Shown here piece after piece: positions 12-36,653 of a stretch of 47,577 bases of DNA (its first letter is position 1; each line of letters starts with the position of its first letter). The stretch lies in the NCBI GenBank assembly GCA_036508635.1, contig DATCGY010000151.1, positions 1-47,577 of the forward strand. Direction: 5' to 3'. This DNA comes from Candidatus Anoxymicrobiaceae bacterium (GTDB taxonomy: Bacteria > Actinomycetota > Geothermincolia > Fen-727 > Anoxymicrobiaceae). The notes beneath the pieces are model-generated. The model was not told the DNA's origin. It saw only the letters and a program-made list of their open reading frames with translations, and searched no databases. The translations under genes and the position numbers were made by a program.

Positions 12-1730
12 GTGTCGGAGCGGGATTGGGGCACTTGCGCGTCGGCCGTCGCGGCCCCGGCGAAGACCTGGTATCTGGCGGAGGGTTGCACGGCGGCGGG
101 GTTCGAGACCTGGGTACTGGTCCAGAACCCGGGCTCTTCTCCGGTCGATGTCACAATGAGCCTTCAGACCGGGAACGGCGGGGTCGCTGGACCGAAAGAT
201 ACCATTCCCGCCCTGACCCGGCGCACGTATAACCTGGCCGACTACGTCGTGAGCTACAACGTCTCGACAAAGGTGAGCGCGAGCGCGCCGGTCGTCTGCG
301 AGCGCGCGATGTACGGCAACAACCGCGAGTGGGGCACCGGGGCGACCGGAGTGACATCGCCGTCGAAGACGTGGTATCTCGCCGAAGGATGTACCGACGG
401 TGGGATGGAGACGTGGGTCCTCGTCCAGAACCCGGGGTCGACGCCTGTCAATGTCACACTGACCCTGCAGACGGACGCCGGGCAGGTCGCCGGCCCTAAA
501 GACACGATTCCTCCCAGGACCAGGCGCTCCTACAACCTGGCGAAATACGCTGTCTCCTACAACATCTCGACCGAGGTCAACGCTAGCGGCGGAGTCGTCT
601 GTGAGCGCGCGATGTACGGCAACAGCCGCGAGTGGGGCACCGACGATACTGGAGCTCCATCTCCGTCGACCTCCTGCTACCTTGCTGAGGGTTGTACCCT
701 TCCTGACTTCGAGACGTGGGTACTGGTGCAGAATCCGGGTACTTCGACGGCCAGGGTGCGCATGAGGCTCCTGACTGACAAAGGAGAGGTCGCCGGCCCG
801 GACGACAGCGTCCCGCCGGGCACCAGGCGGACGTACGACCTCTCCAAGTACGCTCCCAACGCGAGCGTGGCGACTGTCGTCAGCTCCAATTCACCGGTGG
901 TGGTGGAACGGGCTATGTATGGGGGCAGGCGGCTGTGGGGCACGTGCTCGTCAGGGTGCACCGCTCTTTCGAGCGTCTGGTATCTTGCGGAGGGTTGTAC
1001 GGCGAACAAGTTCGAGACGTGGATCGCGCTGATGAACCCCGGGAAGAACGCCGTCGATGTCAAGGTCAAGTTGCAGACCGACAAGGGTGAGGTCGCCGGC
1101 CCTTCCGGTACCATCCAGCCCCGGCAGCGCAAGACGTTCTATCTCGGTGACTACGTCGACACCTTCAACGTATCGGCGAAGGTAGAGGCCAGCGCGCCCG
1201 TCGCCTGCGAGCGCTCGATGTACGGTGAAGGCACCAGCAGGCGCCCTTGCGCCCCTGTGCAGGGGCCGCCACTATATCCGATCACGAAAGACGCGTCCAT
1301 AGCTTGCGGCCATTGGCCAGCGGGGTCGACCGACTACCCGTACTTCGGAGCGCCTAGAGAGGGAACCCGCCTTCACGCGGGAGTCGACATTTATCCCCCC
1401 GGCGGCGAAGGGACCCCGGTCAGGGCGATAAAAACGGGAACTGTCGTAAAGACCGGTCTTTTCTACACTCGCGCCAACGGCGAGCAGACGTTCGCCGTGC
1501 TCGTCGACCACGGGGACTACGTGGCGACATACGGGGAGTTGCGCCCGCTGGACGCCTGGCTCCAGCCAGGTGTGACGGTATCGCGAGGCCAGGTAATCGG
1601 ATATGTCAGTGGAACGGTACAGCTCCACTTCGAGATGTACAAACCGGGCATCGGGACCTGGTTCAGCTGGTACGGCCCCAAACCAGCCGACCTCATCGAC
1701 CCCACAGATTACGTTCTCGGCCTGTACTGA
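12..1730 (+). CDS. Secreted/cell-wall M23 (LytM-type) metallopeptidase with N-terminal tandem 101-aa repeat modules. The 5' end is probably cut by the window edge.
   Basis: The C-terminal part carries M23 signatures: LHAGVDIY (HxxxD) and QLHFEMY (HxH-like). The N-terminal part is four in-phase copies of a module WYLAEGCT..ETWVLVQNPG..VAGP..TRRxYxL..CERAMYG. The frame stays open to nt 3. Confidence 0.8.
   Translation: MSERDWGTCASAVAAPAKTWYLAEGCTAAGFETWVLVQNPGSSPVDVTMSLQTGNGGVAGPKDTIPALTRRTYNLADYVVSYNVSTKVSASAPVVCERAMYGNNREWGTGATGVTSPSKTWYLAEGCTDGGMETWVLVQNPGSTPVNVTLTLQTDAGQVAGPKDTIPPRTRRSYNLAKYAVSYNISTEVNASGGVVCERAMYGNSREWGTDDTGAPSPSTSCYLAEGCTLPDFETWVLVQNPGTSTARVRMRLLTDKGEVAGPDDSVPPGTRRTYDLSKYAPNASVATVVSSNSPVVVERAMYGGRRLWGTCSSGCTALSSVWYLAEGCTANKFETWIALMNPGKNAVDVKVKLQTDKGEVAGPSGTIQPRQRKTFYLGDYVDTFNVSAKVEASAPVACERSMYGEGTSRRPCAPVQGPPLYPITKDASIACGHWPAGSTDYPYFGAPREGTRLHAGVDIYPPGGEGTPVRAIKTGTVVKTGLFYTRANGEQTFAVLVDHGDYVATYGELRPLDAWLQPGVTVSRGQVIGYVSGTVQLHFEMYKPGIGTWFSWYGPKPADLIDPTDYVLGLY
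21..1232 (+). repeat. Four tandem, exactly phased 303-nt (101-codon) intragenic repeats
   Basis: Unit starts fall at 21, 324, 627 and 930 (R-[DEL]-W-G-T codons). The gagcgcgcgatgtacggcaac motif recurs at 301, 604, 907 and 1210. Nt ~298-340 and ~601-643 are near-identical 40-mers. Confidence 0.9.
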
Positions 1731-1790
1731 GGCGCAACGTCAGGTTGCGAAGCTTTTCTCGGAGATCGAAGCAAGTTGCTCGACTATCTG

Positions 1791-1857: not shown

Positions 1858-1954
1858 TTGTCTCCCGCAGGAAACCGCCGCCGGCCGTCATTGACCGCGG
1901 TGCCCTCGAGGTCGTATAAGAAGGGTGTGGAACCCTACCTTGGAGGCGAGCGAT

Positions 1955-4927
1955 GTGAACGGGAAGTCTTTTACCAACACCATCAGCGGCTCGGTCCTGC
2001 GGCTGATGGCCGCGAACTTCAACTTGAGACCTTCCATCAGGGAATCCATGCGCTGCAACGGGTCATGGGTCGATTTCACGGTCGGTCTCAGGACGGAGCA
2101 GGACACCGTCGAACAGGCGATAAGGTTCAGGGACGGAAAGGCCACTGTCCTCAGACACATTCCGGCTGAAGTCGACGTCACGATGATCATGGCCGACGAC
2201 TCCGTGGTCAAGGAGCTTCTCTCCGCGACTCCGAACGAGACTCTCAACATGCTGCTCAAGAGCAAGCTCAGGCTCGAGGGGAACCTCAGTTATATCAGCC
2301 TCTTCAACTATTACATCGCCACGTTGATGGCCAAGACTAACGCCAGGCGAAACTCGAAGATAAAGGAAGACGATGCCGCAATGAGGCTCAGCGAGGCTCC
2401 TCGCGTCGACCCCGCGCTCAGGACGGAGATGGCCCGTCGCAGGAGTGCGAGGATGGCCGCCCAGGAGATCGACGCCGGCGTGCATTTCCTGGAGGAACCA
2501 TACCTCTGTGCTTATGACATCGAAGATTTTCCGCGCTTGGAGCGCTTCCTGGAAATACATTTTACTACCAGGCCGGAGCTTTGTGCCGAGCGGCCAAAGC
2601 TCCTGATGGACTGGTTCGTAGAGAACGGGTTCGAGAACGACAGGGAAGGCAAGCCGTGGTTTCCGCCGCTTCGCCAGGGGTATGCATTCAAGCACCTGAT
2701 GGAAAATCGCAAGCCGATAATCAGGAAACACGATCTCATCGCGGGTACTACGACGACGAAGGACATAGGTGTCGTTATATACCCGGATGCGATCGGCACG
2801 ACAATGTGGAGCGAGCTCGAGAGCGTTCCAGACCGTCTGCTGAACCCGTACGATGTCTCCGAGGAGACGATCAAGACCCTTCACCACTACGTCTTTCCGT
2901 ACTGGACGCACCGTAACTTCCGGGAATGGGTACGCGAAAAGTACAACGCTCCTTTGAGCCAGAAGATGGATGAGCGCTTCGCGGTCTATTTCATGTGGAA
3001 GACGGTCGCGCTCTCGCACACCATCGCGGATTTTCCGAGGCTCATGAACCAGGGCACCTCCGGTGTGATACGGGAGATAGAGGAGGAGCTCGCGCGCGAC
3101 GAGTTCGCGAACCAGGCTAAGAAGGATACCCTGCATGGTATGATTCTCTGTCTCGAGGGCGTTAACGCCTACGCGAGAAACCTCTCGAGGCAGGCTACCC
3201 GCGATGCGGAGGCAGAAGGCGACCCGGTCCGCCGGGCCGAGCTGGAGCGGCTGGCCGAGATATGCGCGAAGGTTCCAGAGAACCCATGCGACACGCTCGA
3301 CGAGGCTATTAACGCGTGCTGGATAGTATGGCTCTCGCTGCATATGGAGAGCACAAACGCAGGTCTTTCCATCGGGCGAATGGATCAGTGGCTCCAGCGT
3401 TACTTCGAGGCCGATATCGCGAAGCTGTCCACCCCCGATGAACGGGAGGAGTACGTAAGGAAAGCGATAGAGCTGGTCGGGTGCTTCTACATGAGGTGCA
3501 CCGATCACCTCCCCATGATCATAGATATCGGCAACTATCTATTTGGTGGCAGTTCCTCAGACCAGGCTATCACCCTTGGAGGGATCACGCCGGAGGGGGA
3601 AGACGCTGTCAACGACATGACGTACATCTTCCTCAAGGTCACCGAGCTGCTCAATATCCGGGACCCCAACATCAACGCTAGGTACAACCCGGAGAAGAAC
3701 TCCGACATCTACCTCAAGCGCCTTTGCGAGGTCAACCTCATCACTGCCGCGACACCGTCCATGCACAACGACCTCGCCGTAATGGAGTCGCTCAAGGAGT
3801 TCGAATACGCCCCCGAGGACCTCCGGGACTGGTCGGCGACCGGTTGCGTGGAGCCGACGCTCTCGGGCAAGCATATCGGGCATACCAACTGCATGATGAT
3901 GAACATGGTCGCCGCCTTCGAGATGGCCATGAACAACGGCAGGCACCCACTGATGAACTGGGATGTGGGGCCGAAGACCGGCAGCATCGAAGCAGGTGAT
4001 TTCACGGAGTTCGAGGATTTCTTCGGGGCGTTCCTGACGCAGTATCGGTTCCTCATAGATAGCTCCGTGGAGTACAACAACATGCTGGGCGAGGCCCATA
4101 ACGTCCTGCGACCGACGCCGCTGCTATCCTCGCTGATAAACGACTCGATAGAGAACGGCAAGGACGTCACGGCGGGTGGCGCCAGGTACAACAGCTCGGG
4201 ATCGGCGTGTATCGGGCTCGCAGATGTCACGGATTCACTGATGGTGATCAAGAAGCTCGTGTACGACGGGAAAAAGGTTAGCTTCGCCGACCTCAAGAAG
4301 GCCGTGGACACCAACTTCGTGGAGGACCCCGCGCTTCACGCGATGGTCACAAGGAAGGTCCCGCTCTTCGGCTCGGGCAGCGAAGAGGCCCTCGAGATGG
4401 CGGGACGGATCACCAGGTTCACCCATGATACGTATGGAGGACACAGGAACTTCAGGGGCGGGCCTTACACCGCGGGATTCTGGTCGATGTCCAACCACGT
4501 GGCGTTCGGTACTCTCACGGGGGCCCTGCCGTCGGGGAGGCTTGCCGGCAAGGCGTTCACTCCGGGCCTGACCCCGGAGCCGAACGCCTCAAAGAACCTG
4601 CTCGACAACATCAGGGACGTCGCGAGGCTCGACCCCCACGACATGAACAACAACATCGCCTTCAACGTCAAGGTGGTACCGTCCGCGCGCGACACTCACG
4701 AACAGGTCGTCGACAACATGTTCTCGTACGCCAAGACCTACTTTGACCTTGGCGGGATGCAGATGCAGATGAACGTTGTCACGAGCGACATGCTCCGTGA
4801 CGCTATGGCCTATCCCGAGAATTACCGCAACCTTCTTGTACGCATCTCGGGGTACAACGCTTACTTTGTGACCCTCAATCGCGATATGCAGATCGAGCTC
4901 ATCGAACGCGCCGAATACGGAATCTAG
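1955..4927 (+). CDS. Glycyl-radical enzyme (PFL2/dehydratase-eliminase clade) with an N-terminal SCP2-like domain
   Basis: The C-terminal Gly-radical fingerprint is RISGYNAYFV. The thiyl loop is ATGCVEP (Cys-x-Glu). The PFL2 core begins near ELCAERPKLLMDWF. The N-terminal ~110 aa match the SCP2 signature (DVTMIMADDSVVKELLSATPNETLNMLLKSKLRLEGNLSYISLF). The start is taken as GTG 1955, 8 nt after GGAGG at 1942-1946. The track start of 1925 is possible but has no usable RBS spacing. Confidence 0.85.
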   Translation: MNGKSFTNTISGSVLRLMAANFNLRPSIRESMRCNGSWVDFTVGLRTEQDTVEQAIRFRDGKATVLRHIPAEVDVTMIMADDSVVKELLSATPNETLNMLLKSKLRLEGNLSYISLFNYYIATLMAKTNARRNSKIKEDDAAMRLSEAPRVDPALRTEMARRRSARMAAQEIDAGVHFLEEPYLCAYDIEDFPRLERFLEIHFTTRPELCAERPKLLMDWFVENGFENDREGKPWFPPLRQGYAFKHLMENRKPIIRKHDLIAGTTTTKDIGVVIYPDAIGTTMWSELESVPDRLLNPYDVSEETIKTLHHYVFPYWTHRNFREWVREKYNAPLSQKMDERFAVYFMWKTVALSHTIADFPRLMNQGTSGVIREIEEELARDEFANQAKKDTLHGMILCLEGVNAYARNLSRQATRDAEAEGDPVRRAELERLAEICAKVPENPCDTLDEAINACWIVWLSLHMESTNAGLSIGRMDQWLQRYFEADIAKLSTPDEREEYVRKAIELVGCFYMRCTDHLPMIIDIGNYLFGGSSSDQAITLGGITPEGEDAVNDMTYIFLKVTELLNIRDPNINARYNPEKNSDIYLKRLCEVNLITAATPSMHNDLAVMESLKEFEYAPEDLRDWSATGCVEPTLSGKHIGHTNCMMMNMVAAFEMAMNNGRHPLMNWDVGPKTGSIEAGDFTEFEDFFGAFLTQYRFLIDSSVEYNNMLGEAHNVLRPTPLLSSLINDSIENGKDVTAGGARYNSSGSACIGLADVTDSLMVIKKLVYDGKKVSFADLKKAVDTNFVEDPALHAMVTRKVPLFGSGSEEALEMAGRITRFTHDTYGGHRNFRGGPYTAGFWSMSNHVAFGTLTGALPSGRLAGKAFTPGLTPEPNASKNLLDNIRDVARLDPHDMNNNIAFNVKVVPSARDTHEQVVDNMFSYAKTYFDLGGMQMQMNVVTSDMLRDAMAYPENYRNLLVRISGYNAYFVTLNRDMQIELIERAEYGI

Positions 4928-5036
4928 ATCGATAGAGCATGATTTATCCTTTGCTCGTCACGGGGGGCTCGGGGTACGTTTTTTCCTCGAGGTCCTCGCG
5001 GAAAGACGGAATTCGGTCAAATATATTTCCGCTGAG

Positions 5037-5128
5037 GAGTTCTACGAAAAATAGTACCCCTCGCCCTGCACTTTAAGAGAACAACTGGAGACGTGCACGG
5101 GCGATCCCAGGTCTTGTCGGCCTGATTC
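5037..5128 (+). repeat. Copy B of the direct repeat, lying between the convergent 3' ends of the GRE gene and the GT-C gene
   Basis: Copy B reads gagttctacgaaaaatagtacccctcgccctgcactttaagagaacaactggagac..cctgattc. It has the same order and orientation as copy A. Confidence 0.6.
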
Positions 5129-5157
5129 AATTCAGCGATGCAATGCATAGTAGCTAT

Positions 5158-6960
5158 CTACCGGAGTTCGTAGGCGTAATAACCGTCAGACTGATAGCGA
5201 GGCACGAGCTCCGGCTTACGCTTGACGCGCTCGAGGATACTTGCGAACCGCCCGTGATCGTACCGCTTGCTCTCGAGGATCACGTACTTGACCTTGAGGC
5301 GCCTCAAATACCGGAGGGCCGCCCGCGATGGAAAATCGTACTCAGCCCTGACGGCATCCTTGTACGAGACCGGCACATAGCCGGAGTACCCGTTGACCAT
5401 CGCTTTCCAGTTGGCGGTGTTGAAGTAGTCGCGCTCGGGCTCCATGCTCACGTAAGCGAAGTCGTCCATGCGATTGACGGACTTGCTGTCGTAAGGCGCA
5501 ACCGGCAAGACGATCGTGGGTGCGTTGCCGTCGACGCCCGCCATCCATCTGAACACAGAGGGGAACTGGGCTTTGGTCAGCATTGGTTTCATCTCTATCC
5601 CGGTAGGGAGGATCTCGACCACCATCAGGATGAGGATCACCACGAGCAGGCCGGCTACCGCGACGCGGTCCAGGTGTCCGTTGAGCTTCGAGCGCAACCA
5701 CTTGACGCCGAATCCAGACAGCACGGCGAGCGACAGTAGGCAGAGGACGAATATCCTGGTCGGAGTGCGTATGGCCTTGAACCCGGGGAAGAATTTGTAC
5801 AGGAACTTGTAAGGCATGAGTATGCTTGAATGGTGCCCGAAGGCGTAGAAAGCCACTCCCAGGCACATCACGCCGGCCAGGAGTAACAGCGTTACGTAGA
5901 ACGCGAGGGCGAACCTGTCGCGCCGGCTTATTCCGCGACTGGACAGCAAGACGATTCCGCCGATGGTCAGGAGGAGTGGCAGCAGGCCCGGGAAAAGTGA
6001 GCGTTCGGACCCGTTACCACGCGTATACGGGTCGGGCCTGAACAGGCTCGTCGCCTTGCCCCAGACCAGGCTCTGGGGAGGAGCTACGAGGAAATCGGTG
6101 ACATCGCCGGAGTAGCTGGCGACCTCGTTGATATCCCTCGAGAAATTAGGGTTGAGCTTCTGCGACTTCAGATATGGAAGGATGAAAGGAGCAAGCACGA
6201 CCCCGATAAGCATAACGGAAGCCACAAAGAAGGCGACCCATCGGTACGCAGCCTTGCGTTCCTCGAGGCTTGCTTTGCGCCGCAGGACCGCCACTATGCG
6301 CTTTCTCTTCATGAGCGCGAGTATGACCAGGTATATCAGCACGGCGAACACCAGGTAGAAGCCGTAGCTCCAGACGCTCCAGAACACCGCTATCGAGAAG
6401 ACGCTGAAAAGGAAAGCATAGACGGGTTTTCGCTTTTCGGTGAAGAGGTGCAGGCACAGGAACGCGAGCGGCAGGAAACCCATCGAGAGCAACTGCATGT
6501 GCGTTATGTGGGCGAGCCTGTACGTCGAGAACCCGAAGACAATGCCACCGGCGAAAGCGGCATACCTGTCCCCGGTAAGGTGCCAGACCAGAAGGTACGC
6601 GCCGAACGAGGCTATAACGAAGCTCATGAGTATCACGAAGTTGAACGCGAGCACGCCGTTGCCGGTCACGGCCAGCACGGGCAGGGCGATGAGAGAGCTC
6701 ATGAATTCGTCGTCAGAGTAGGCTAACGTATACCTGTTCGGGTAGAACAGCGTCGCGTTGAAGAGGTTCAACGGGTTGGTCTCGAGTGAGTGCGCCGTCC
6801 ACGAGAGCACGTAGATGTTGAACATCGTATCGCCCGTGTTCTCGCGCATAGTGTGGTTGTTTGCCTCGGTGACGAGGGGCCTCGTATAGAACAGCGTGAG
6901 AAGCACGAACAGCACTAGCACAAGCACATATATGAGTACGGTTTTGCGTCTGTGGCTCAA
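5158..6960 (-). CDS. Polytopic GT-C-fold membrane glycosyltransferase-like protein
   Basis: The 600-aa protein has more than 10 predicted TM helices. There is an acidic motif in the first outer loop (AYSDDEFM). The soluble C-terminal domain is as seen in ArnT/PMT/YfhO-like enzymes. Confidence 0.6.
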   Translation of the reverse strand: MSHRRKTVLIYVLVLVLFVLLTLFYTRPLVTEANNHTMRENTGDTMFNIYVLSWTAHSLETNPLNLFNATLFYPNRYTLAYSDDEFMSSLIALPVLAVTGNGVLAFNFVILMSFVIASFGAYLLVWHLTGDRYAAFAGGIVFGFSTYRLAHITHMQLLSMGFLPLAFLCLHLFTEKRKPVYAFLFSVFSIAVFWSVWSYGFYLVFAVLIYLVILALMKRKRIVAVLRRKASLEERKAAYRWVAFFVASVMLIGVVLAPFILPYLKSQKLNPNFSRDINEVASYSGDVTDFLVAPPQSLVWGKATSLFRPDPYTRGNGSERSLFPGLLPLLLTIGGIVLLSSRGISRRDRFALAFYVTLLLLAGVMCLGVAFYAFGHHSSILMPYKFLYKFFPGFKAIRTPTRIFVLCLLSLAVLSGFGVKWLRSKLNGHLDRVAVAGLLVVILILMVVEILPTGIEMKPMLTKAQFPSVFRWMAGVDGNAPTIVLPVAPYDSKSVNRMDDFAYVSMEPERDYFNTANWKAMVNGYSGYVPVSYKDAVRAEYDFPSRAALRYLRRLKVKYVILESKRYDHGRFASILERVKRKPELVPRYQSDGYYAYELR

Positions 6961-11116: not shown

Positions 11117-12109
11117 ATGCCGGATGAACGCTACGTAAAGCTCGCCGAAAAGATCGGGATGGGATCGTCGGAGTTAATTCCTCGACTCTTCGAGAAGCTA
11201 GCCAGCGCCGAAGAGGCTGACGTGCTGTTCGACCTTCCCGGTGACGCATCGAGCGTTGCGAAGACGGGCGGCATGGACCCGGAGGCGGCACAGAAGATGC
11301 TCGATGGCCTGTATCGAAAAGGCCTCGTCTTCAAGAAGGCGACCCCCGAAGGAACCCTGTACAGGATGTGCCGCGACCTGATGCAGTTCCACGACGCGAC
11401 GATCTTGTGGCCTGAGGCGCCGAGGGATTACCTCGACCTCTGGAATGAGTTCATGGAGACGGAGTGGCCGGCCTTTTCCGAGCTTGCCGCCAAGTTCCTG
11501 CCAAAGCCGGTGGCTCGCGTGGTACCGGTCAGCGAATCGGTTGACGCGCGGCAGCAGATTCTTGCGTTCGAGGACGTGAGGCAGATAATCGAAACGGAAA
11601 CGCCGGTCGCCGTGACGAACTGCACCTGCCGGCTCACCGCTCAAAAGTGCGACCGTCCAGTCGAGATTTGCCTTCAGGTGGGCAAGGCCGGGGAGTACGC
11701 GATCGATCGTGGCAGCGGGCGCGAGATCGACAAGGAAGAAGCCCTCAGGCTTCTCAAGGAGGCGGAAGACGCCGGACTGGTACACGTGACCATGAACAGG
11801 AACAGTGGCTTTCACTTCATATGCAACTGTTGCAATGACTGCTGCATGACGTTCCCGCTGCTCATCGAACGTCGTTTAAACCTTTGCGATCCGAGCCGCT
11901 TCGCGGCCGAGATCGACACCGGGACGTGCGAGGGATGCGGCAGTTGCGTGGAGAGGTGCTACTTCGGGGCGCTGGAGGTCGACGAGGATGCGGGAGTCTG
12001 CATCGTAGACCCCGAGATGTGCATGGGATGCGGACTCTGCCAATCCGCCTGCCCGTCAGGGGCGCTGAGGCTGGTCCAGGTGAGGGACGCCGACTTCATC
12101 CCAGGATAA
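11117..12109 (+). CDS. Fe-S protein with a C-terminal 2x[4Fe-4S] ferredoxin domain and an additional Cys-rich core
   Basis: The ferredoxin motifs are CEGCGSCVERC and CMGCGLCQSACP. Extra cysteine clusters are CTCRLTAQKC and ICNCCNDCC. The N-terminal ~70 aa look like a winged-helix domain. Confidence 0.7.
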   Translation: MPDERYVKLAEKIGMGSSELIPRLFEKLASAEEADVLFDLPGDASSVAKTGGMDPEAAQKMLDGLYRKGLVFKKATPEGTLYRMCRDLMQFHDATILWPEAPRDYLDLWNEFMETEWPAFSELAAKFLPKPVARVVPVSESVDARQQILAFEDVRQIIETETPVAVTNCTCRLTAQKCDRPVEICLQVGKAGEYAIDRGSGREIDKEEALRLLKEAEDAGLVHVTMNRNSGFHFICNCCNDCCMTFPLLIERRLNLCDPSRFAAEIDTGTCEGCGSCVERCYFGALEVDEDAGVCIVDPEMCMGCGLCQSACPSGALRLVQVRDADFIPG

Positions 12110-12765: not shown

Positions 12766-12918
12766 CTAGGGAGCTACCTTGGACATGGCTTTCTCGGCCT
12801 TCTTGGTAGCTTTTTCAGCCTGCTTTACCAGCTTGTCGGACTTCTTGGTCGCCTTGCCTGCCTTCTTGTCCAGCTTGTTGGCCTTTTTCTCGAGCTTTTT
12901 GGCCTTGCGTGCCCTCAT
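12766..12918 (-). CDS. Untracked 50-aa Lys/Ala-rich highly basic small protein (MRARKAKKLEKKANKLDKKAGKATKKSDKLVKQAEKATKKAEKAMSKVAP)
   Basis: The ORF runs from ATG 12918 to TAG 12766-12768. An RBS (GGGAGAGG) lies 5 nt upstream, and a near-consensus promoter lies at 13001-13029. 19 of the 50 residues are Lys. Confidence 0.65.
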   Translation of the reverse strand: MRARKAKKLEKKANKLDKKAGKATKKSDKLVKQAEKATKKAEKAMSKVAP

Positions 12919-13000
12919 CGTACCTCTCCCTTCTCCGTACCATAAGCCTCGCTATCGGCTTACGTCGTCTCCCATTGGAAAGAGCAGTTGCCCATCCCAT

Positions 13001-13029
13001 ATCATAACCACATGTAGATAAGATTGTAA
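13001..13029 (-). promoter_or_regulatory. Sigma-70-type promoter for the Lys-rich small gene
   Basis: The minus strand reads TTACAA, a 17-nt spacer, then TATGAT (-35 at 13024-13029, -10 at 13001-13006). Confidence 0.55.
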
Positions 13030-26057: not shown

Positions 26058-27395
26058 ATGGGCGATACCCGCGACATAGAGTATGTCCTCGAAGCGGTGC
26101 GAGAGCATGACGTAAAGTTCATAAGGCTCTGGTTCACCGACATCCTCGGTTTTCTCAAGAGCTTCGCGATCACACGTGAAGAGCTCGAGGAAGCTCTCGA
26201 AGACGGCATGGGTTTCGACGGATCTTCGATCCAGGGCTTCGCCAGGATCGACGAGAGCGACATGATCGCCCAACCGGACCCTTCCACCTTCACTATCCTC
26301 CCGTGGCGTCCCAGCGGGCACAGTGCGGTCGCGCGCATGTTCTGCGACGTACTTGAGCCCGATCGGTCGCCGCACGCCGGTGACCCCCGGTACGTCCTGA
26401 AGAGAAACGTCGAGAAGGCAAAGAAGCTGGGCTACACGTACTACGTCGGCCCGGAGCTCGAGTACTATTACTTCGCGAGCTCTGAAGGCCCACCCGAAGT
26501 GCTCGACAGGGGAGGGTACTTTGACCTCACCCCGCTCGATCTCGCCAGTGACCTCAGGCGCGATACGGTGCTGACCCTCGAGGAGATGGGAATCGGCGTC
26601 GAATACAGCCACCACGAGGTCGGGCCGAGCCAGCACGAGATCGACCTAAGATATTCGGATGCGCTGCAGATGGCTGACAATGCCATGACATACCGCCTGG
26701 TGGTAAAGGAAGTCGCTCTGAAGCATGGAGTCCACGCCACGTTCATGCCGAAGCCGCTGTTCGGTGAGAACGGAAGCGGCATGCACACCCACATGTCACT
26801 GTTCAAGGGAGACAGCAACGCCTTCTTCGACCCGAACGACGAGTATTACCTGACAAAAGAAGCCAGGGGCTTTATCGGTGGCCTGATGAAATACGCCCAG
26901 GAGATCTGCCTGGTTACCAATCAATGGATAAACTCGTACAAGAGGCTTGTGCCGGGTTATGAGGCACCGGTATACCTGTCCTGGGCGCAGCGCAACCGCT
27001 CCGACATGATCAGGGTGCCCGTCTACAAGCCGGGTAAGGAAAAGGCTACGCGCGTCGAGTTCCGGTCGCCGGACCCCGCATGCAACCCGTATCTCGCTTT
27101 CTCAGCGATGCTGGCCGCGGGCCTCAAGGGCATAGAGGACAACATCGATCCGGGCGAGCCTGTCGAGAGGAACATCTACGAGATGAGCGAGGAAGAGCGC
27201 GGGAACCTCGGGATTGAGAGCCTTCCCGAGGACCTCTGGGAGGCCATCAAGCTAGCCGAGAAAAGTGATCTGCTCAGAGAGTGCCTGGGCGACCACGTAT
27301 TCGAGTTGCTCATAAGGGACAAGAAGATCGAGTGGGAGAAGTACAGGGCGGTAGTCACCGAGTACGAGCTCGAAAACTATTTATCGGTCCTGTAA
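26058..27395 (+). CDS. glnA: Glutamine synthetase, type I (short, GSI-alpha-like, 445 aa)
   Basis: The motifs are FTDILGFLKSF, GPELEYYYF, KPLFGENGSGMHTHMSLF and RVPVYKPGKEKATRVEFRSPDPACNPYLAF. An AGGAGG RBS is present. Confidence 0.96.
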   Translation: MGDTRDIEYVLEAVREHDVKFIRLWFTDILGFLKSFAITREELEEALEDGMGFDGSSIQGFARIDESDMIAQPDPSTFTILPWRPSGHSAVARMFCDVLEPDRSPHAGDPRYVLKRNVEKAKKLGYTYYVGPELEYYYFASSEGPPEVLDRGGYFDLTPLDLASDLRRDTVLTLEEMGIGVEYSHHEVGPSQHEIDLRYSDALQMADNAMTYRLVVKEVALKHGVHATFMPKPLFGENGSGMHTHMSLFKGDSNAFFDPNDEYYLTKEARGFIGGLMKYAQEICLVTNQWINSYKRLVPGYEAPVYLSWAQRNRSDMIRVPVYKPGKEKATRVEFRSPDPACNPYLAFSAMLAAGLKGIEDNIDPGEPVERNIYEMSEEERGNLGIESLPEDLWEAIKLAEKSDLLRECLGDHVFELLIRDKKIEWEKYRAVVTEYELENYLSVL

Positions 27396-28963: not shown

Positions 28964-30079
28964 TTGGCGTTCGGGGATCAGTATGCCAAATGGAGGGTAG
29001 ACACAGAGAAAGTGCCCGGCGCGTGCGGCCTGTCGGGTGTGATGAGCCGCGACGGCAAGCGCTTCGGCGGTGACGTAATCATAGAATCCATGAGGGTCCT
29101 CCACGACCGTGGCAACGGGCTCGGAGGCGGGTTCGCCGGCTACGGCATCTACCCGGACTACCGCGACCACTACGCGATGCATATCATGTTCGAGGATGCG
29201 GCAGGGAGGGCGCTCTGCGAGGAGTTGCTCGAAGCCAGTCTCGAGATCGATGTCGGGGAGGAGCTCCCCACCAGGGCACACCCGGGCATTATCGACGCGC
29301 CGGACCTGCGCCGCTACTTCGTAAAACCCAGGCGAGAGGTCGTCGCGGCCGAGGCGATCGAGCCTGACGATTTTATGGTCAAGCTGGTCATGAAGATCAA
29401 CAAGACCGTTCCGGGCACGTTCGTCTTTTCCAGCGGCAGGAACATGGGAGTGTTCAAGGCCGTCGGTTTCGCCGAGGACGTCGGTGAGTTCTTCAAGCTT
29501 CCGGAGTACGACGGGTATATCTGGACCGGGCACGGCAGGTTCCCTACGAACACGCCTGGATGGTGGGGGGGAGCGCACCCGTTCAATATCCTCGACTGGA
29601 CGGTCGTACACAACGGCGAGATATCATCGTACGGTATCAACAAGCGATACCTCGAGATGTTCGGGTATGAGTGCACGCTTCTGACCGACACCGAGGTTAT
29701 GGCTTACCTGTTCGACCTCCTCGTGCGCAAGCACAAGCTCCCGCTCGAACTGGCGTGCCGCGTCATCGCCGCGCCGTTCTGGAAAGATATCGACTACGAA
29801 GGAAAGACAGAGCGGCACGACCTGGATGAGGCACTGCGCATCACGTACGCAAGCGCGCTGGTCAACGGTCCGTTCGCGGTTGTGATCGGGTTCTCGCGCG
29901 GCATGGTGGGGCTGAACGACAGGATCAAGCTAAGGCCACTTGTCGCCGCTTACAAGGACGATCTACTGTACGTCTCCAGTGAGGAATCGGCGATACGGCA
30001 GGTTTGCCCCCGGCCTGACCGGGTCTGGGCTCCGAACGCGGGCCAGCCCGTCATAGGGGAATTGAGGGGTGATGTGTGA
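28964..30079 (+). CDS. Glutamate synthase amidotransferase subunit (the GltB class-II GATase domain as a separate polypeptide)
   Basis: The Ntn-type Cys-Gly (PGACGLSGVM) follows a short propeptide. RGNGLGGGFAGYG, GHGRFPTNTPG and HNGEISSYG are also present. The TTG start lies 10 nt after GGAGGG. Confidence 0.8.
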   Translation: MAFGDQYAKWRVDTEKVPGACGLSGVMSRDGKRFGGDVIIESMRVLHDRGNGLGGGFAGYGIYPDYRDHYAMHIMFEDAAGRALCEELLEASLEIDVGEELPTRAHPGIIDAPDLRRYFVKPRREVVAAEAIEPDDFMVKLVMKINKTVPGTFVFSSGRNMGVFKAVGFAEDVGEFFKLPEYDGYIWTGHGRFPTNTPGWWGGAHPFNILDWTVVHNGEISSYGINKRYLEMFGYECTLLTDTEVMAYLFDLLVRKHKLPLELACRVIAAPFWKDIDYEGKTERHDLDEALRITYASALVNGPFAVVIGFSRGMVGLNDRIKLRPLVAAYKDDLLYVSSEESAIRQVCPRPDRVWAPNAGQPVIGELRGDV

Positions 30080-31581
30080 TGCCCGGCAACATGGTAACCA
30101 GTGAGTTCCAGGTCATGGTTGACCAGGAGAAATGCCGGAAGTGCAAGAGATGCGTACTCAACTGCGGGTTCGGGACGCTTGAGTTCAAGGACAGGGTGAT
30201 ACCCGACTCGTCAAAGTGCGTAGCCTGCCACAGGTGTGTCGTTTTCTGCCCCGAGGAGGCTATAACCGTGACGCGCAACCCGCTGGCTTTCAGCGAGCAT
30301 GCGTCGTGGGCGGTAGACAGGCGCAAGGACGTCTGGAAGCAGGCCGAGAGCTCGGGCATGCTTCTGACAGGCATGGGCAACGACCTGCCGTGGCTCAACG
30401 TTTTCGACCACCTGCTGATCGATGCCTGCCAGGTCACCAACCCATCCATCGACCCGCTTCGCGAGCCGATGGAGCTTCGCACTTTTCTCGGCAGAAAGCC
30501 TGACCGGGTCGAGGTCGAGCCCGGCGATGGCGGATACAGGCTGAACACGACGGTCGGCAACAACATCAAGCTGGACGTCCCGATGATGTTCAGCGGTATG
30601 TCTTACGGCTCCGTGAGCCTAAACGTCCACAAGGCGCTCGCCCTTGCTGCCGAGAAGCTCGGTACGGTCATGAATACGGGCGAGGGTGGCCTTCACGAGG
30701 AGCTGTACCCGCTCGCGGACCATATCATTGTGCAGTGCGCGTCGGGTCGGTTCGGGGTCCATTCCGAGTACCTGAACAAGGGTGTCGCGGTGGAGATCAA
30801 GGTCGGCCAGGGTGCGAAGCCGGGAATCGGCGGACACCTGCCCGGCGAGAAGATCGGCCGTGAGGTCTCGAGCACGCGCATGATACCCATCGGAACAGAC
30901 GCACTGTCTCCGGCGCCACATCACGACATCTACTCGATCGAGGATCTGCGACAGTTGATCTACGCCATCAAAGAAGCTACCGGGTACAAGCCGGTGTCGG
31001 TCAAGATAGCGACCGTTCACAACGTCGCCGCTATCGCCAGCGGCATAGCACGGGCTGGAGCTGACATTATCTATCTCGACGGTTTCCGGGGAGGTACTGG
31101 TGCGAGCCCGGCCGTCATTCGCGACCATGTCGGTATCCCTCTCGAGATCGCGCTTGCCGTGGTCGACCAGCAGCTTCGCAGCGAAGGGATAAGGAACTGG
31201 GTCTCGATAATAGCCGCTGGCGGCATACGCTCCAGCGCCGACGTGGCCAAGGCGATCGCGCTGGGAGCCGATGCAGTGGGCATCGGCACCGCCGCGCTCA
31301 TTGCGATGGGCTGCCGTTTATGTCAGAAATGCTACACGGGTAACTGCTCGTGGGGGATCGCGACCCAGAAGCCCGAACTTACAGGCAGGCTCGACCCTGA
31401 TTGGGGAGCCGAGCGCCTCGTGAACCTGATAAACGCATGGGCGCTCGAGCTCAAAGAGGTCCTCGGCGCGCTCGGAGTGAACGCCATCGAATCTCTTCGG
31501 GGTAATCGCGAGCGGCTGAGAAGCCTGGGGCTCGACGAGATGACCACGGAGATACTCGACGTAAAGCCGGCCGGAAGGTGA
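30079..31581 (+). CDS. Glutamate synthase FMN/[3Fe-4S] central-domain subunit with an N-terminal 2x[4Fe-4S] ferredoxin module (archaeal type)
   Basis: The N-terminal motifs are CRKCKRCVLNC and CVACHRCVVFCP. The core motifs are KVGQGAKPGIGGHLPG, SPAPHHDIYSIEDL and the cluster cysteines CRLCQKCYTGNC. Its ATG overlaps the upstream stop codon (TGATG). Confidence 0.88.
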   Translation: MPGNMVTSEFQVMVDQEKCRKCKRCVLNCGFGTLEFKDRVIPDSSKCVACHRCVVFCPEEAITVTRNPLAFSEHASWAVDRRKDVWKQAESSGMLLTGMGNDLPWLNVFDHLLIDACQVTNPSIDPLREPMELRTFLGRKPDRVEVEPGDGGYRLNTTVGNNIKLDVPMMFSGMSYGSVSLNVHKALALAAEKLGTVMNTGEGGLHEELYPLADHIIVQCASGRFGVHSEYLNKGVAVEIKVGQGAKPGIGGHLPGEKIGREVSSTRMIPIGTDALSPAPHHDIYSIEDLRQLIYAIKEATGYKPVSVKIATVHNVAAIASGIARAGADIIYLDGFRGGTGASPAVIRDHVGIPLEIALAVVDQQLRSEGIRNWVSIIAAGGIRSSADVAKAIALGADAVGIGTAALIAMGCRLCQKCYTGNCSWGIATQKPELTGRLDPDWGAERLVNLINAWALELKEVLGALGVNAIESLRGNRERLRSLGLDEMTTEILDVKPAGR

Positions 31582-31593
31582 GAGAGAGGGAGT

Positions 31594-32370
31594 ATGGCGA
31601 AGGCTGCCACTAGAAATAAAAGCGAGCTTACCACGGTCACGATCGATGCGACCGGGATCTACTATAAGCAACTCAACGAACAGATACGCGACCTCATAGC
31701 GGAAGGCTGCACCGAGATAGTGCTGGATGGCGTAAACGGCCAGCGGTATATCGGCGATGGCCTGAGCGTGGACGGTGTCACAATAGTGATAAACGGGGTC
31801 CCGGGCAACGACCTCGGCGTGTTCATGGATGGGCCTGAAGTCATCGTCAACGACAACGCGCAGGATGGTGTCGGAAACACCATGAACGCCGGCAAGATAG
31901 TGGTGAAAGGCCACGCGGGTGACGTGATCGGCTACGGGATGAGGGGCGGAAAGATCTTCGTCCTTGACAACATCGGCTACCGCGTCGGCATCCACATGAA
32001 ATCGTTCAAGGAGCAGGTGCCCGTCATAGTCGCCGGCGGGTGTGCGGGAGATTTCTTCGGCGAGTACATGGCCGGAGGGCTGCTCGTGCTCCTCGGTCTC
32101 AACGCGGGCGAGACCCCAATGGTCGGCAGCTACGTCGGGACCGGAATGCACGGTGGGGCCATATTCCTGCGGGGCGAGGTAACCGAGCATCAGCTCGGCA
32201 AGGAGGTCAGGGTCTTTCCACTGGACGACGAGGACACCTGCATGCTTGAGAGCCTGCTCGAGGAATTCGCCGCGGACACAGGGGCGGATATTTCGGGCGT
32301 GTCGACCGGGCAGTTTGTAAAACTTCAGCCGTTTTCGCACCGCCCATACGGCAACATGTACTGTTATTGA
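31594..32370 (+). CDS. Glutamate synthase GXGXG (GltB C-terminal beta-helix) domain subunit
   Basis: GxxGxxxG beta-helix turns repeat through the protein: GQRYIGDG, GVPGNDLG, GHAGDVIGYGMRGG, and AGGCAGDFFGEYMAGG. Confidence 0.85.
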   Translation: MAKAATRNKSELTTVTIDATGIYYKQLNEQIRDLIAEGCTEIVLDGVNGQRYIGDGLSVDGVTIVINGVPGNDLGVFMDGPEVIVNDNAQDGVGNTMNAGKIVVKGHAGDVIGYGMRGGKIFVLDNIGYRVGIHMKSFKEQVPVIVAGGCAGDFFGEYMAGGLLVLLGLNAGETPMVGSYVGTGMHGGAIFLRGEVTEHQLGKEVRVFPLDDEDTCMLESLLEEFAADTGADISGVSTGQFVKLQPFSHRPYGNMYCY

Positions 32371-34618: not shown

Positions 34619-34627
34619 GGAAAAAAC

Positions 34628-34742
34628 ATAGTCTTCGGGACAGGGTGAAATCCCCGACCGGCGGTATAGCCCGCGAGCTCCTCTGGAGCAGACCCGGTGA
34701 GATTCCGGGGCCGACGGTAACAGTCCGGATGGGAGAAGATAT
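34628..34742 (+). promoter_or_regulatory. FMN riboswitch (RFN element) aptamer
   Basis: The sequence tcttcgggacagggtgaaatccccgaccggcggtatagcccgcgagc...ggtgagattccggggccgacggtaacagtccggatgggagaaga matches the RFN consensus, including P1 closure (tcttc/gaaga). Confidence 0.95.
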
Positions 34743-34761
34743 CTGACCGTTGCGGTCAGTT

Positions 34762-34787
34762 GCGCCAGCTTCTCCTGGCGCTTTTTT
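34762..34787 (+). terminator. Riboswitch expression-platform terminator
   Basis: The hairpin gcgccag-cttctc-ctggcgc is followed by TTTTTT. It ends 32 nt before the ribD ATG. Confidence 0.85.
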
Positions 34788-34818
34788 GATCCCATCGACC
34801 CTGTCCCCAGGTGCAAAC

Positions 34819-35970
34819 ATGGATTTTTTTCAGAGCGGAGAGAGAAATATAGCGGGAATGCGCCCCCCGGACGCCGGATCGGTGGACGAGCGGATGATGA
34901 TGCGCGCGCTCGAACTGGCCGAGAAAGGAAGGGGCATGACGTCTCCCAATCCCGTCGTAGGTGCGGTTATCGCAAGGGGCGACCAGGTTATCTCCGAGGG
35001 ATACCACGAGAGGGTCGGAGGGCCGCATGCCGAGATAAATGCGCTCGACAGCGCTCCGGGCGGCCTCCGCGGGGCCACCATGTATGTCACGCTCGAGCCG
35101 TGCTCTCACCAGGGCAGAACGCCGCCGTGCGCTCCGAGAGTGGCGGATTCGGGCATTGAGAGGGTCGTGATAGCCGTTCGCGATCCAAACCCGCAGGTCG
35201 CCGGCGGGGGAGAGGCGCTCCTCAAAGATCACGGCGTCGAGGTCTCTGTAGGCCTCTTCGGCCGGTTCGCCCTCAGGCAGAATGAAGAGTACCTGAAATG
35301 GGTGAGGACTCGCAGGCCTTTCGTGACATTGAAGATGGCGATGAGCCTCGACGGCAAGGTGGCCACGAGGACGGGCGATTCCAAGTGGATATCTTCGGAA
35401 ATATCCAGGGCCGATGTTCAGCGCGCCAGGGCGGCAAGCGACGCGGTCATGGTCGGTATCGGAACCGTGATGAGCGACAATCCCCGACTGAACGTGCGGG
35501 ATTTAGAGGGAGTCCGACAGCCACTGAGGGTCGTCGTTGACAGCTTTGCCAGGACGCCGGTCGGGAGCAATGTCGCTGATAGCTCGATGGCGCCGACGCT
35601 CCTGGCCGTCTCCGAGAATGCTCCTGGGGAGAGTATCCGGGCACTCGAAGCAACAGGTGTCGAGCTCATGAGGCTCGACGACGCCGGGAAGGTCGACCTT
35701 GGAGCCCTATTGGAGCTGCTCGGCGAGCGTGGAGTGACTTCTTTGCTCGTTGAGGGAGGACCGGAACTTGCTCGAGGTGTGTGGCAGGCAGGGTTGGTCG
35801 ATAAGTTCGTGTTCTACTTTGCTCCCAAGATAGTGGGCGGGTGCGAGGCGCCTGGGCCGGTCGGTGGGACCGGGGTTGCCTGCATGAAGGAGGCCGGGCC
35901 GCTCACGATAGATGCTGCTTTCGAGATGGGTCCAGATTTAAAGGTGGTCGCGTACCCGGGGGGAGAGTGA
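34819..35970 (+). CDS. ribD: Bifunctional diaminohydroxyphosphoribosylaminopyrimidine deaminase / 5-amino-6-(5-phosphoribosylamino)uracil reductase
   Basis: The motifs are SPNPVVGAVI, HAEINAL and LEPCSHQGRTPPC, followed by the reductase domain. The track start of 34750 would span the terminator, so it was rejected. Confidence 0.93.
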   Translation: MDFFQSGERNIAGMRPPDAGSVDERMMMRALELAEKGRGMTSPNPVVGAVIARGDQVISEGYHERVGGPHAEINALDSAPGGLRGATMYVTLEPCSHQGRTPPCAPRVADSGIERVVIAVRDPNPQVAGGGEALLKDHGVEVSVGLFGRFALRQNEEYLKWVRTRRPFVTLKMAMSLDGKVATRTGDSKWISSEISRADVQRARAASDAVMVGIGTVMSDNPRLNVRDLEGVRQPLRVVVDSFARTPVGSNVADSSMAPTLLAVSENAPGESIRALEATGVELMRLDDAGKVDLGALLELLGERGVTSLLVEGGPELARGVWQAGLVDKFVFYFAPKIVGGCEAPGPVGGTGVACMKEAGPLTIDAAFEMGPDLKVVAYPGGE

Positions 35971-35971
35971 G

Positions 35972-36631
35972 TTGTTCACCGGAGTTATCGAGGAGAAAGG
36001 CACGGTCGCCGGGCTGACCGCCGACGGAAAGCTGAGGGTCTCCGCGCGCACGGTGCTCGAGGGTACCAGGATAGGCGACTCCATAGCCGTATCGGGGGTT
36101 TGCCTGACGGTCGTGGAGCTCGATTCAAGCAGTTTCACGGTTGACGTGATGCCTGAGACGCTGCGCAGCAGCGCACTGGCCGACGTGAGGACGGGCAGGC
36201 AGGTCAACCTCGAGCGGGCCATGGGTGCGGGCGGGCGTTTCGGCGGGCACCTGGTCAACGGACACGTCGACGGCGTTGGGACGGTTGGCGGCATAAGGCG
36301 CGAGGCCAACGCGGTGGTCATCGAGATATCGACTCCCGTGGACATCACGCATTACATGGTGCCCAAGGGTTCAGTTGCGATCGACGGGATAAGCCTGACG
36401 ATAGTCGAGGTCTCGCGTGGCCGATTCACAATCTCCGTCATCCCGCACACTCTCGATGAGACGACTCTAGACGACGCCCGCGCGGGCACCCGCGTGAACC
36501 TCGAGGTCGATATTATCGCCAAGTACGTGGAGTCTTTTCTTGCGCGTGACGGAACGCCGGAACAGGCGCCAAGCGGAGGAATAGGGGAAGCCCTGTACCG
36601 GGGTGGTTTTACCTCCGGTCAGGAAGGCTAA
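35972..36631 (+). CDS. ribE: Riboflavin synthase (alpha chain)
   Basis: The protein starts MFTGVIEEKGTV. It has the duplicated barrel with GDSIAVSGVCLTV and GSVAIDGISLTI. Confidence 0.93.
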   Translation: MFTGVIEEKGTVAGLTADGKLRVSARTVLEGTRIGDSIAVSGVCLTVVELDSSSFTVDVMPETLRSSALADVRTGRQVNLERAMGAGGRFGGHLVNGHVDGVGTVGGIRREANAVVIEISTPVDITHYMVPKGSVAIDGISLTIVEVSRGRFTISVIPHTLDETTLDDARAGTRVNLEVDIIAKYVESFLARDGTPEQAPSGGIGEALYRGGFTSGQEG

Positions 36632-36653
36632 CTGAGGAAAGTGAGGTAAGAGT

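Follow-up and report, generated by a model that had tools for sequence, protein, structure and literature searches.

A glycyl-radical enzyme of the 1,2-eliminase type with a predicted SCP2-fold module, in a Candidatus Anoxymicrobiaceae contig and across a conserved family

The SCP2-GRE gene and its product

We analyzed a 47,577-nt stretch of DNA from Candidatus Anoxymicrobiaceae bacterium (GenBank assembly GCA_036508635.1, contig DATCGY010000151.1; the whole stretch is referred to as the 47.6-kb window), which carries a gene for a glycyl-radical enzyme (GRE) whose catalytic core is preceded by a module resembling the lipid carrier SCP2. A sequence-only reading of the window had described this gene as an orphan GRE fused to an SCP2-like domain and had suggested a hydrophobic substrate. 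The features of the gene are as follows, with residue numbers referring to its 990-aa product.

1942-1946, plus strand: GGAGG ribosome-binding site; blastn homology to the related loci L003 and L008 begins at 1942
1955-4927, plus strand: coding sequence of the SCP2-GRE fusion including the stop codon, with a 990-aa product 85% identical to P0002/L003 over 100% of its length
1955-2329, plus strand: predicted SCP2-fold module, residues 1-125, an alpha/beta domain with a five-stranded sheet (AlphaFold2 model, Foldseek and PDB profile matches; Pfam SCP2 score sub-threshold)
2330-2524, plus strand: charged, mostly helical linker, residues 126-190, the least conserved part (alignment consensus, secondary structure of the full-length model)
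2525-4924, plus strand: GRE catalytic core of the PFL2/eliminase type, residues 191-990 (Pfam, full-length AlphaFold2 model, Foldseek)
3017-3019, plus strand: His355, family-invariant and aligned with propanediol dehydratase His166 (HMMER alignment)
3542-3565, plus strand: family signature F530-GGSSSDQ-537, replacing the aromatic FAGY..F loop of propanediol dehydratase and CutC (alignments, invariant columns)
3842-3856, plus strand: Cys loop GCVEP, with Cys631 as putative thiyl radical site and Glu633 as putative general base, both invariant (translation, HMMER alignment)
3881-3889, plus strand: H643-T644-N645, with the near-invariant Asn645 at the Asp position of diol dehydratases (alignment, conservation)
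4841-4867, plus strand: glycyl radical motif RISGYNAYF, Gly966 at 4850-4852 (translation; motif invariant in 81 homologues)

The plus-strand frame is open from 1925 to 4927 (a 1000-aa frame) and contains no internal stop. The likeliest start is the GTG at 1955, for which the GGAGG sits 8 nt upstream, and the closest relative also starts with a GTG and encodes the identical VNGKSFTN peptide. A scan of one genome per species with the FGGSSSDQ signature as the search pattern returned at least 578 related loci, of which we kept the best 80; these are 61-79% identical to the window protein and span residues 1-990, starting within the first 19 residues. This one-frame coverage in all 80 kept loci, together with the continuous frame in the window and an independent assembly that is 99.7% identical, led us to rule out a frameshift or a mis-joined separate open reading frame (ORF) as the origin of the N-terminal extension. 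Every family-invariant residue is present in the window protein.

Within the 1000-aa frame, the core was matched by the Pfam PFL-like family with an E-value of 5.6e-165 (residues 213-862) and by Gly_radical with an E-value of 8.2e-23. The full-length AlphaFold2 model (predicted local distance difference test score, pLDDT, 87.6; predicted template modeling score, pTM, 0.91) found dehydratases and lyases as its best structural matches in Foldseek, and the core reached TM-scores, normalised to target length, of 0.86-0.93 against chains of propanediol dehydratase, HypD, glycerol dehydratase and CutC. Among solved structures, A. fulgidus PFL2 came closest in sequence (376 bits), followed by the eliminases (330-355 bits) and then by MasD (193 bits) and BSS-alpha (184 bits). 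Counting along the HMMER alignment to propanediol dehydratase equated Cys631 with Cys438, Glu633 with Glu440, His355 with His166 and Asn645 with Asp452; A. fulgidus PFL2 also has an Asp at the Asn645 position. Cys631 thereby takes the place of the catalytic Cys that GREs carry on a loop within a ten-stranded barrel. Propanediol dehydratase His166 in turn presumably corresponds to His164 of glycerol dehydratase. The latter residue is the proposed proton donor to the leaving hydroxyl, and the C-x-E motif is common to GRE 1,2-eliminases (PMC13450708). The RISGYNAYF motif, which is of the RVxG[FWY] type, and the GCVEP loop, which the sequence-only reading had called typical of the eliminase/dehydratase clade, were both borne out by translation, Pfam and alignment. 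From its sequence, we concluded that the core is a complete 1,2-eliminase-type GRE.

The active site is nevertheless predicted to differ from those of the diol dehydratases, since the GGSSSDQ segment stands in place of FAGY..F and Asn645 in place of Asp, substitutions which suggest a roomier and more polar pocket. In glycerol dehydratase, propanediol dehydratase and CutC, the pocket wall presumably includes the residues at these positions. The NCBIfam equivalogs all scored far below their cut-offs, including HypD (409 against 1100), CutC (372 against 1050) and HpsG (361 against 1000), with HpfG, PflD/YbiW, IAD, HPAD and PFL compared as well, and the subfamily model TIGR01774 was also below its cut-off (492 against 678). 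We excluded a known GRE function on the basis of these sub-cut-off equivalogs and of the solved structures, all of which lack the N-terminal extension. Neither in NCBIfam, nor among the solved structures, nor in a recent GRE review did we find a close ortholog of known substrate that bears the same extension.

Some 190-200 residues precede the core, as the Pfam PFL-like match begins at residue 203 of the 990-aa protein (213 of the 1000-aa frame). Pfam SCP2 (PF02036) scored 15.3 bits on the whole protein (E 0.026) and 19.5 bits on the domain alone, with a gathering score of 21.3; strict membership is not reached, hence the absence of SCP2 from precomputed annotations, where PF02901 and PF01228 alone appear. 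Among 42 family N-termini, 21 matched SCP2 with E-values of up to 1, the best being 3.9e-6, and the three best matches of the family profile to PDB sequences were all SCP2 (E 0.15), over the same stretch that the sequence-only reading had aligned with SCP2. An AlphaFold2 model of residues 1-140, built with 42 homologues, reached a pLDDT of 84 and a pTM of 0.74, with predicted helices at 6-24, 26-31, 82-90, 93-101 and 111-124 in addition to the five strands. When this model was compared with the PDB by Foldseek, the first 45 matches were all SCP2-fold proteins (E 2.9e-6 to about 3e-3, probability 1.00), with TM-scores, normalised to target length, of up to 0.72 against single-domain SCP2 proteins. 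Among them are archaeal AF1534, the SCP2 proteins of yeast, insects and humans, UbiJ-SCP2 and, from the alkylsulfatases SdsA1 and Pisa1, SCP2-like domains with long-chain alkyl ligands in their PDB entries.

The SCP2-like segment proposed earlier is therefore upheld at the level of fold, by the AlphaFold2 model with Foldseek and by the PDB profile matches, with a Pfam score below threshold. We consider that the assignment of an SCP2 fold to the N-terminal module stands, on predicted structures that are clear and on sequence evidence that is consistent but weak, and the presumed role of the modeled domain is that of a hydrophobic-ligand carrier. The linker that follows closes with a conserved DPGV..L.DPYL segment, and the same segment opens the GRE core in the split versions of the protein described below.

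Recurrence of the SCP2 module with the GRE, and gene context in relatives

The window protein is no singleton, so that the earlier label of an orphan does not apply to it in this sense; it belongs to a large and highly conserved family of oxygen-sensitive radical enzymes from anaerobes. In the databases, its 120 best homologues have lengths of about 990-1000 aa and are 64-85% identical to the window protein with full query coverage, and identities across the family range from 61 to 85%. The SCP2 part is fused to the GRE in all 80 kept loci, across several phyla. The hosts include Geothermincolia and other Actinomycetota, Chloroflexota, Spirochaetota, SAR324, Myxococcota, Bacillota, Chitinophagales and one Promethearchaeota (Asgard) archaeon, as well as many Desulfobacterota, namely Desulfatibacillum, Desulfosudis oleivorans, Smithella and Syntrophaceae. 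Desulfatibacillum, Desulfosudis and Smithella are known as degraders of hydrocarbons, including alkanes, and of fatty acids. Database entries for the family carry the labels "formate acetyltransferase" or "pyruvate formate lyase family".

Searching 1.84 billion representative proteins with a profile of the N-terminal module gave only 333 matches, which comprise fragments of SCP2-GRE family members, divergent SCP2-GRE fusions (P0222, P0224, P0172 and P0258) and standalone SCP2-like proteins of 125-170 aa. The module is also found unfused beside the GRE. The second paralogue of L003 consists of two ORFs with a 4-nt overlap, one for a 165-aa SCP2 protein and one for an 824-aa GRE core. In L088, the order is the C-terminus of an activase, a standalone SCP2-like ORF (L088:340-807) and a GRE core beginning at the position that corresponds to residue 176, and in L089 it is the C-terminus of a GRE, a standalone SCP2-like ORF (L089:529-966) and an activase with the CxxxCxxC motif; the standalone proteins of these two loci are 145-155 aa long. 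That the module accompanies the GRE even when it is not fused to it is our strongest evidence for a functional partnership with this GRE clade, as opposed to a chance fusion. We also sought a transitive link to SCP2 through the standalone relatives, and this failed, since the PF02036 scan misses the standalone proteins too.

Several variants of the family were observed alongside these. Two full-length homologues, P0212 (984 aa) and P0185 (1007 aa), lack the catalytic Cys (AGDGGP and AGAAAP at the loop) and the Gly motif (RSAGAGALF and RVGACCARF), and may, judging from these substitutions, be non-catalytic pseudo-enzyme partners. Several genomes encode two tandem, catalytically intact SCP2-GRE paralogues (L003:13008-15976; L008:6930-9899; L019:1865-7978; L052:3257-9395), and such tandem paralogues diverge past the Cys loop, with HTNCMM versus HTNFQM or HTGSLL. 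In Chloroflexota, a second GRE of 838-843 aa adjoins the SCP2-GRE and its activase (L005:12007-15579; L017:5912-8428 and L041:4685-7201, the last two coordinates covering the GRE only), and it gave no match to simple Cys-loop and Gly-motif patterns. We ruled out the 838-aa protein as an SCP2-less version of the SCP2-GRE, as it shows 26% identity, belongs to an unrelated GRE family and has its own 344-aa activase.

We then clustered the neighboring ORFs of 87 loci, using a cut-off of 90 aa per ORF, and counted activases separately by tblastn. By ORF clustering, an activase accompanies the GRE in 60 of the 87 loci; by tblastn, one lies within 4 kb of the GRE in 48 of 55 non-redundant, well-flanked loci, with none adjacent in the other 7. 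The activases of the relatives are of the TIGR02494 type with a ferredoxin insert, that of L001 scoring 299 bits against a cut-off of 174. A TetR regulator was found in 43 loci and short-chain dehydrogenases/reductases (SDRs) in 27, mostly as a pair of one extended and one classical SDR, which are fused together in Desulfosudis oleivorans. The usual context is thus TetR, activase, GRE and two SDRs, and the TetR-activase-GRE-SDR core recurs in several phyla. The best named matches of the extended SDR are HpnA and OleD (about 110 bits, both sub-cut-off). We had also entertained a 3-ketosphinganine-reductase (KDSR) type for the classical SDR, which would have hinted at sphingoid substrates, and dropped it because its NCBIfam matches are to generic SDRs only.

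Beyond this core, a fatty-acid-CoA ligase family protein is encoded in 15 loci and a tungsten-type aldehyde:ferredoxin oxidoreductase in 13, acyl-CoA dehydrogenase genes often lie near the GRE, and in L007 two genes for FadL/AupA-like outer-membrane channels lie upstream of TetR-GRE-activase. This gene context in the relatives lends support to the hydrophobic substrate put forward in the sequence-only reading, which we still infer.

The activase-less locus of the window

In the window itself, the surroundings of the gene are different. The features that adjoin it are listed here.

12-1730, plus strand: upstream gene with four tandem repeats of about 110 aa (WYLAEGCT...ETWVLVQNPG...CERAMYG) matching DUF5719, followed by a C-terminal M23 peptidase
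1733-1749, plus strand: terminator-like hairpin with a T-rich tail, just past the stop of the upstream gene (consensus scan)
4928-5157, no strand assigned: 230-bp intergenic gap without an activase remnant (blastn synteny, tblastn)
5158-6960, minus strand: membrane protein, homologue of the DUF6311 proteins of the relatives (so labelled in L003 and L004), with no Pfam match of its own (cluster c20, blastn)

A six-frame scan of the 47.6-kb window for CxxxCxxC in stop-to-stop frames of at least 60 aa gave a sole match, in a 65-aa frame at 12810-13004 that is otherwise unsupported and that we took to be spurious. A tblastn search of the window with nine cognate activases gave a 39-bit match alone, at 30106-30372, which corresponds to the ferredoxin domain of a glutamate synthase subunit. 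The earlier statement that the GRE lacks an activase was therefore correct for these 47.6 kb, although it holds for this genome lineage only, given the activase near the GRE in 48 of the 55 relatives.

Nucleotide homology to the nearest relatives runs from 1942 to 4925-4929 and resumes at about 5244-5351, inside the DUF6311-homologous gene (blastn). Where the window has its 230-bp gap, the relatives hold 2.5-4.1 kb that include the activase and, in some cases, also Rieske and PIG-L genes or a second SCP2-GRE paralogue. The DUF6311 homologue serves as a synteny anchor outside the enzyme system and in the relatives lies downstream of the GRE-activase pair. Upstream, synteny with the relatives also breaks, at the ribosome-binding site, and the DUF5719/M23 gene has no syntenic counterpart ahead of the GRE in the relatives. 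The hairpin at 1733-1749 suggests that the GRE gene is its own transcription unit, although terminator-like sites in the consensus scan were no commoner than in shuffled sequence, making this weak evidence for a terminator.

The same activase-less layout is present in an independent metagenome contig (L090) that is 99.7% identical over 5910 bp, which argues that the arrangement is no assembly artefact. Compared with L003, the ratio of nonsynonymous to synonymous substitution rates (dN/dS) was 0.079 for the whole gene, 0.108 for the SCP2 module, 0.19 for the linker and 0.066 for the core, all of these being approximate as dS is close to saturation. Distances to outgroups were no greater than for the activase-bearing sister, with no acceleration on the branch. 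Judged by these sequence comparisons, the gene is under purifying selection and probably functional, although its function may have been lost very recently. With the activase segment missing beside the GRE, the simplest reading is that activation must come from an activase encoded elsewhere; that is, it would occur in trans.

The neighbors of the gene within the window encode the DUF5719/M23 peptidase, the DUF6311-homologous membrane protein, DUF1622, MgtC, PfkB, PASTA and PMT_2 glycosyltransferase proteins, and housekeeping functions. At 11117-12109 (plus strand) lies a gene for a Cys-rich protein of 330 aa that ends in a 2x[4Fe-4S] ferredoxin domain and whose first 260 residues match nothing in Pfam; homologues of this protein (cluster c13) are encoded 6-9 kb from the GRE in related Actinomycetota and directly upstream of TetR-activase-GRE in L072 and L073. 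Glutamate synthase is encoded as three ORFs (GATase_2; Fer4 + Glu_synthase; GXGXG) at 28964-32370 (plus strand), after glutamine synthetase (26058-27395) and a CCG/Fer4 protein. Directly upstream of a riboflavin operon of ribD, ribE and ribBA (34750-37871) lies an FMN riboswitch (Rfam RF00050, 111.8 bits; 34627-34744, plus strand), an ordinary arrangement.

Proposed chemistry, alternatives and known systems

We consider it fairly probable that the SCP2-GRE is a radical 1,2-eliminase that acts on the alcohol head of an amphiphilic substrate delivered by the SCP2 module, a proposal in which we infer lipid binding by the module, reaction type and substrate class alike. In the mechanism we propose, a separate radical-SAM activase would install the radical on Gly966, from where it would move to Cys631 as a thiyl radical, and Cys631 would take a hydrogen from the carbinol carbon of the substrate. 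Glu633 would act as base on the substrate hydroxyl while His355 would protonate the adjacent leaving group (hydroxide, alkoxide or similar), yielding an aldehyde or a ketone. The SCP2 module, as modeled, would hold the hydrophobic tail and pass the polar head, an alcohol, into an active site that exceeds that of the small-molecule eliminases in width and polarity; vicinal diols with a long chain or lipids of the glyceryl-ether type would fit, to give examples and no more. In the relatives, the SDRs, the aldehyde:ferredoxin oxidoreductase and the fatty-acid-CoA ligase would process the carbonyl or alcohol product under TetR regulation. A bolder version of this proposal, which we regard as doubtful, is that the family comprises the first GRE eliminases to act directly on membrane-type or insoluble lipids, the module extracting the substrate and presenting its head group for radical C-O cleavage or dehydration, for example in the cleavage of 1-O-alkylglycerol ether lipids or the dehydration of long-chain vicinal diols.

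Several observations weigh against an amphiphilic substrate brought by a carrier module. The TetR, SDR and activase genes of the relatives are all absent from the 47.6-kb window, so that function here relies on an activase encoded outside it. The window's own domain falls under the Pfam SCP2 gathering score, and the standalone SCP2-like relatives went undetected in the PF02036 scan, being as divergent from that family as the fused domain. The aldehyde:ferredoxin oxidoreductase, ligase, glycerol kinase and MlaE genes come mostly from one syntenic clade and, not being independent, weigh less.

The module may instead be a structural, oligomerisation, activase-docking or regulatory appendage of an enzyme whose substrate is a small polar metabolite, which we think unlikely. 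The invariant polar residues of the predicted pocket (Ser, Asp, Gln and Asn, in GGSSSDQ and H-T-N) would suit a fully polar substrate too, SCP2-like domains can be purely structural, and GNAT acetyltransferases such as Eis rank next after the SCP2 proteins in Foldseek, if at much weaker E-values. The pTM of 0.91 of the full-length model likewise suggests a module docked rigidly to the core, as opposed to a free shuttle, and BSS, MASS and HPAD are known to have accessory subunits by which the GRE is stabilised or substrate channels are gated (PMC13450708). Set against such an appendage are the closest structural matches of the module, which include UbiJ and the enzyme-appended SCP2 domains with long-chain alkyl ligands (SdsA1 and Pisa1), the lipid-flavored gene context (the HpnA/OleD-like SDR, the fatty-acid-CoA ligase, the FadL-like porins and the acyl-CoA dehydrogenases), and hosts that lean to hydrocarbon and fatty-acid degraders. 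For this genome in particular, the gene could be an inactive leftover that lost its activase segment and can no longer be activated; the 47.6 kb without an activase, the gap exactly where relatives carry one and the upstream break in synteny would fit with this. We nonetheless hold such decay to be quite improbable, as the ORF is intact with all family-invariant residues kept, dN/dS is 0.079, the outgroup distances equal those of the activase-bearing sister, 7 of the 55 loci are likewise without an adjacent activase, and GRE activases can be encoded elsewhere in a genome.

An alkylsuccinate-synthase-like enzyme that activates hydrocarbons, of the kind proposed for A. fulgidus PflD and the Asgard PflD-like genes and supplied with its alkane by the SCP2 module, is in our view very improbable. 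An alkane would need a carrier, and the family occurs in Desulfatibacillum, Smithella and Desulfosudis, which are alkane degraders, but Desulfatibacillum already possesses dedicated ass genes. The match to A. fulgidus PFL2/PflD as the nearest solved structure by sequence (376 bits) would favor it as well; the function of that protein is itself debated between glycerol dehydratase and MASS (PMC13450708), and Asgard PflD-like GREs have been interpreted as Ass/Bss (PMC8163825). Against this, C-x-E, a feature of 1,2-eliminases (PMC13450708), and the dehydratase His are invariant in the family, the scores of MasD (193 bits) and BSS-alpha (184 bits) lie far under the 330-376 bits of the eliminases, and we found no conserved small-subunit genes among the neighbors, which the 90-aa ORF cut-off could miss. 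The database labels are probably wrong for the SCP2-GRE family, and so, probably, is the label of alkylsuccinate synthase, which related PflD-like genes have received in metagenome papers (PMC8163825).

We consider the interest of these proteins to lie chiefly in the recurrent pairing of SCP2 and GRE and the lipid-directed radical chemistry it implies: a predicted lipid-carrier fold is paired with an active site of the eliminase type, as a fusion, as split ORFs or as a neighbor, with conservation of 61-85% across bacterial phyla and Asgard archaea. To our knowledge, the characterised GRE eliminases all act on small water-soluble metabolites. The open-access literature yielded nothing on the SCP2-GRE combination, although a report that is not indexed may exist. 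A GRE superfamily review of June 2026 names no member that is linked to lipids or bears an SCP2 domain, and it stresses that whole clades are still without an assigned function (PMC13450708). If the substrate is indeed hydrophobic, GRE chemistry would reach amphiphilic or insoluble substrates, the SCP2 module would be a new kind of GRE accessory module, and the enzyme would become a candidate for an unassigned step in the anaerobic degradation of lipids or hydrocarbon-derived alcohols in sediments. Should direct extraction of lipids also hold, anoxic sediments and the subsurface would have a route, independent of oxygen, by which long-chain diols or ether lipids are broken down.

Among known systems, the GRE 1,2-eliminases (glycerol and propanediol dehydratase, HypD, CutC, IslA/HpsG) share with the SCP2-GRE the core fold, the Gly radical motif, C-x-E, the His355/His166 equivalence and, in the relatives, a dedicated TIGR02494-type activase with a ferredoxin insert. 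They differ in that identity is only 23-30%, and in that the SCP2-GRE has about 190 extra N-terminal residues with a predicted SCP2 fold, GGSSSDQ in place of the aromatic loop and Asn645 in place of the diol-dehydratase Asp; the Asp found 12 residues past the catalytic Glu in diol dehydratases (Asp452 of propanediol dehydratase) is not present in the family. The SCP2-GRE also stands outside any microcompartment context, with neighbor genes of lipid type. A. fulgidus PFL2/PflD (PDB 2F3O, 776 aa) is the best sequence match, with its 376 bits extending over residues 230-986, and has the same C-x-E, but is without the SCP2 module, keeps Asp at the Asn645 position and reads FSGQATNQ versus FGGSSSDQ.

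Enzyme-linked SCP2 domains (SdsA1/Pisa1, UbiJ, the SCP-2L of MFE-2, and AF1534) have in common with the module the alpha/beta SCP2 fold, predicted in our case, and their attachment to, or work with, an enzyme. Those of the alkylsulfatases, MFE-2 and UbiJ serve substrates with a long hydrophobic chain. Identity to these domains is 10-18%, and the SCP2-GRE module differs from them in being N-terminal, joined to a radical enzyme and sub-threshold in Pfam. The accessory subunits of other GREs (BSS beta/gamma, MASS beta/gamma/delta and HPAD gamma) resemble it as an extra module or polypeptide beside the catalytic subunit, which in SCP2-GREs is either fused or a separate small ORF, and the beta subunits of MASS and BSS are thought to gate the entry of the hydrocarbon (PMC13450708). 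These accessory subunits are, however, Fe-S or rubredoxin-like small proteins, whereas the SCP2-GRE module has a predicted SCP2 fold without a cysteine cluster and is usually fused to the N-terminus of the enzyme.

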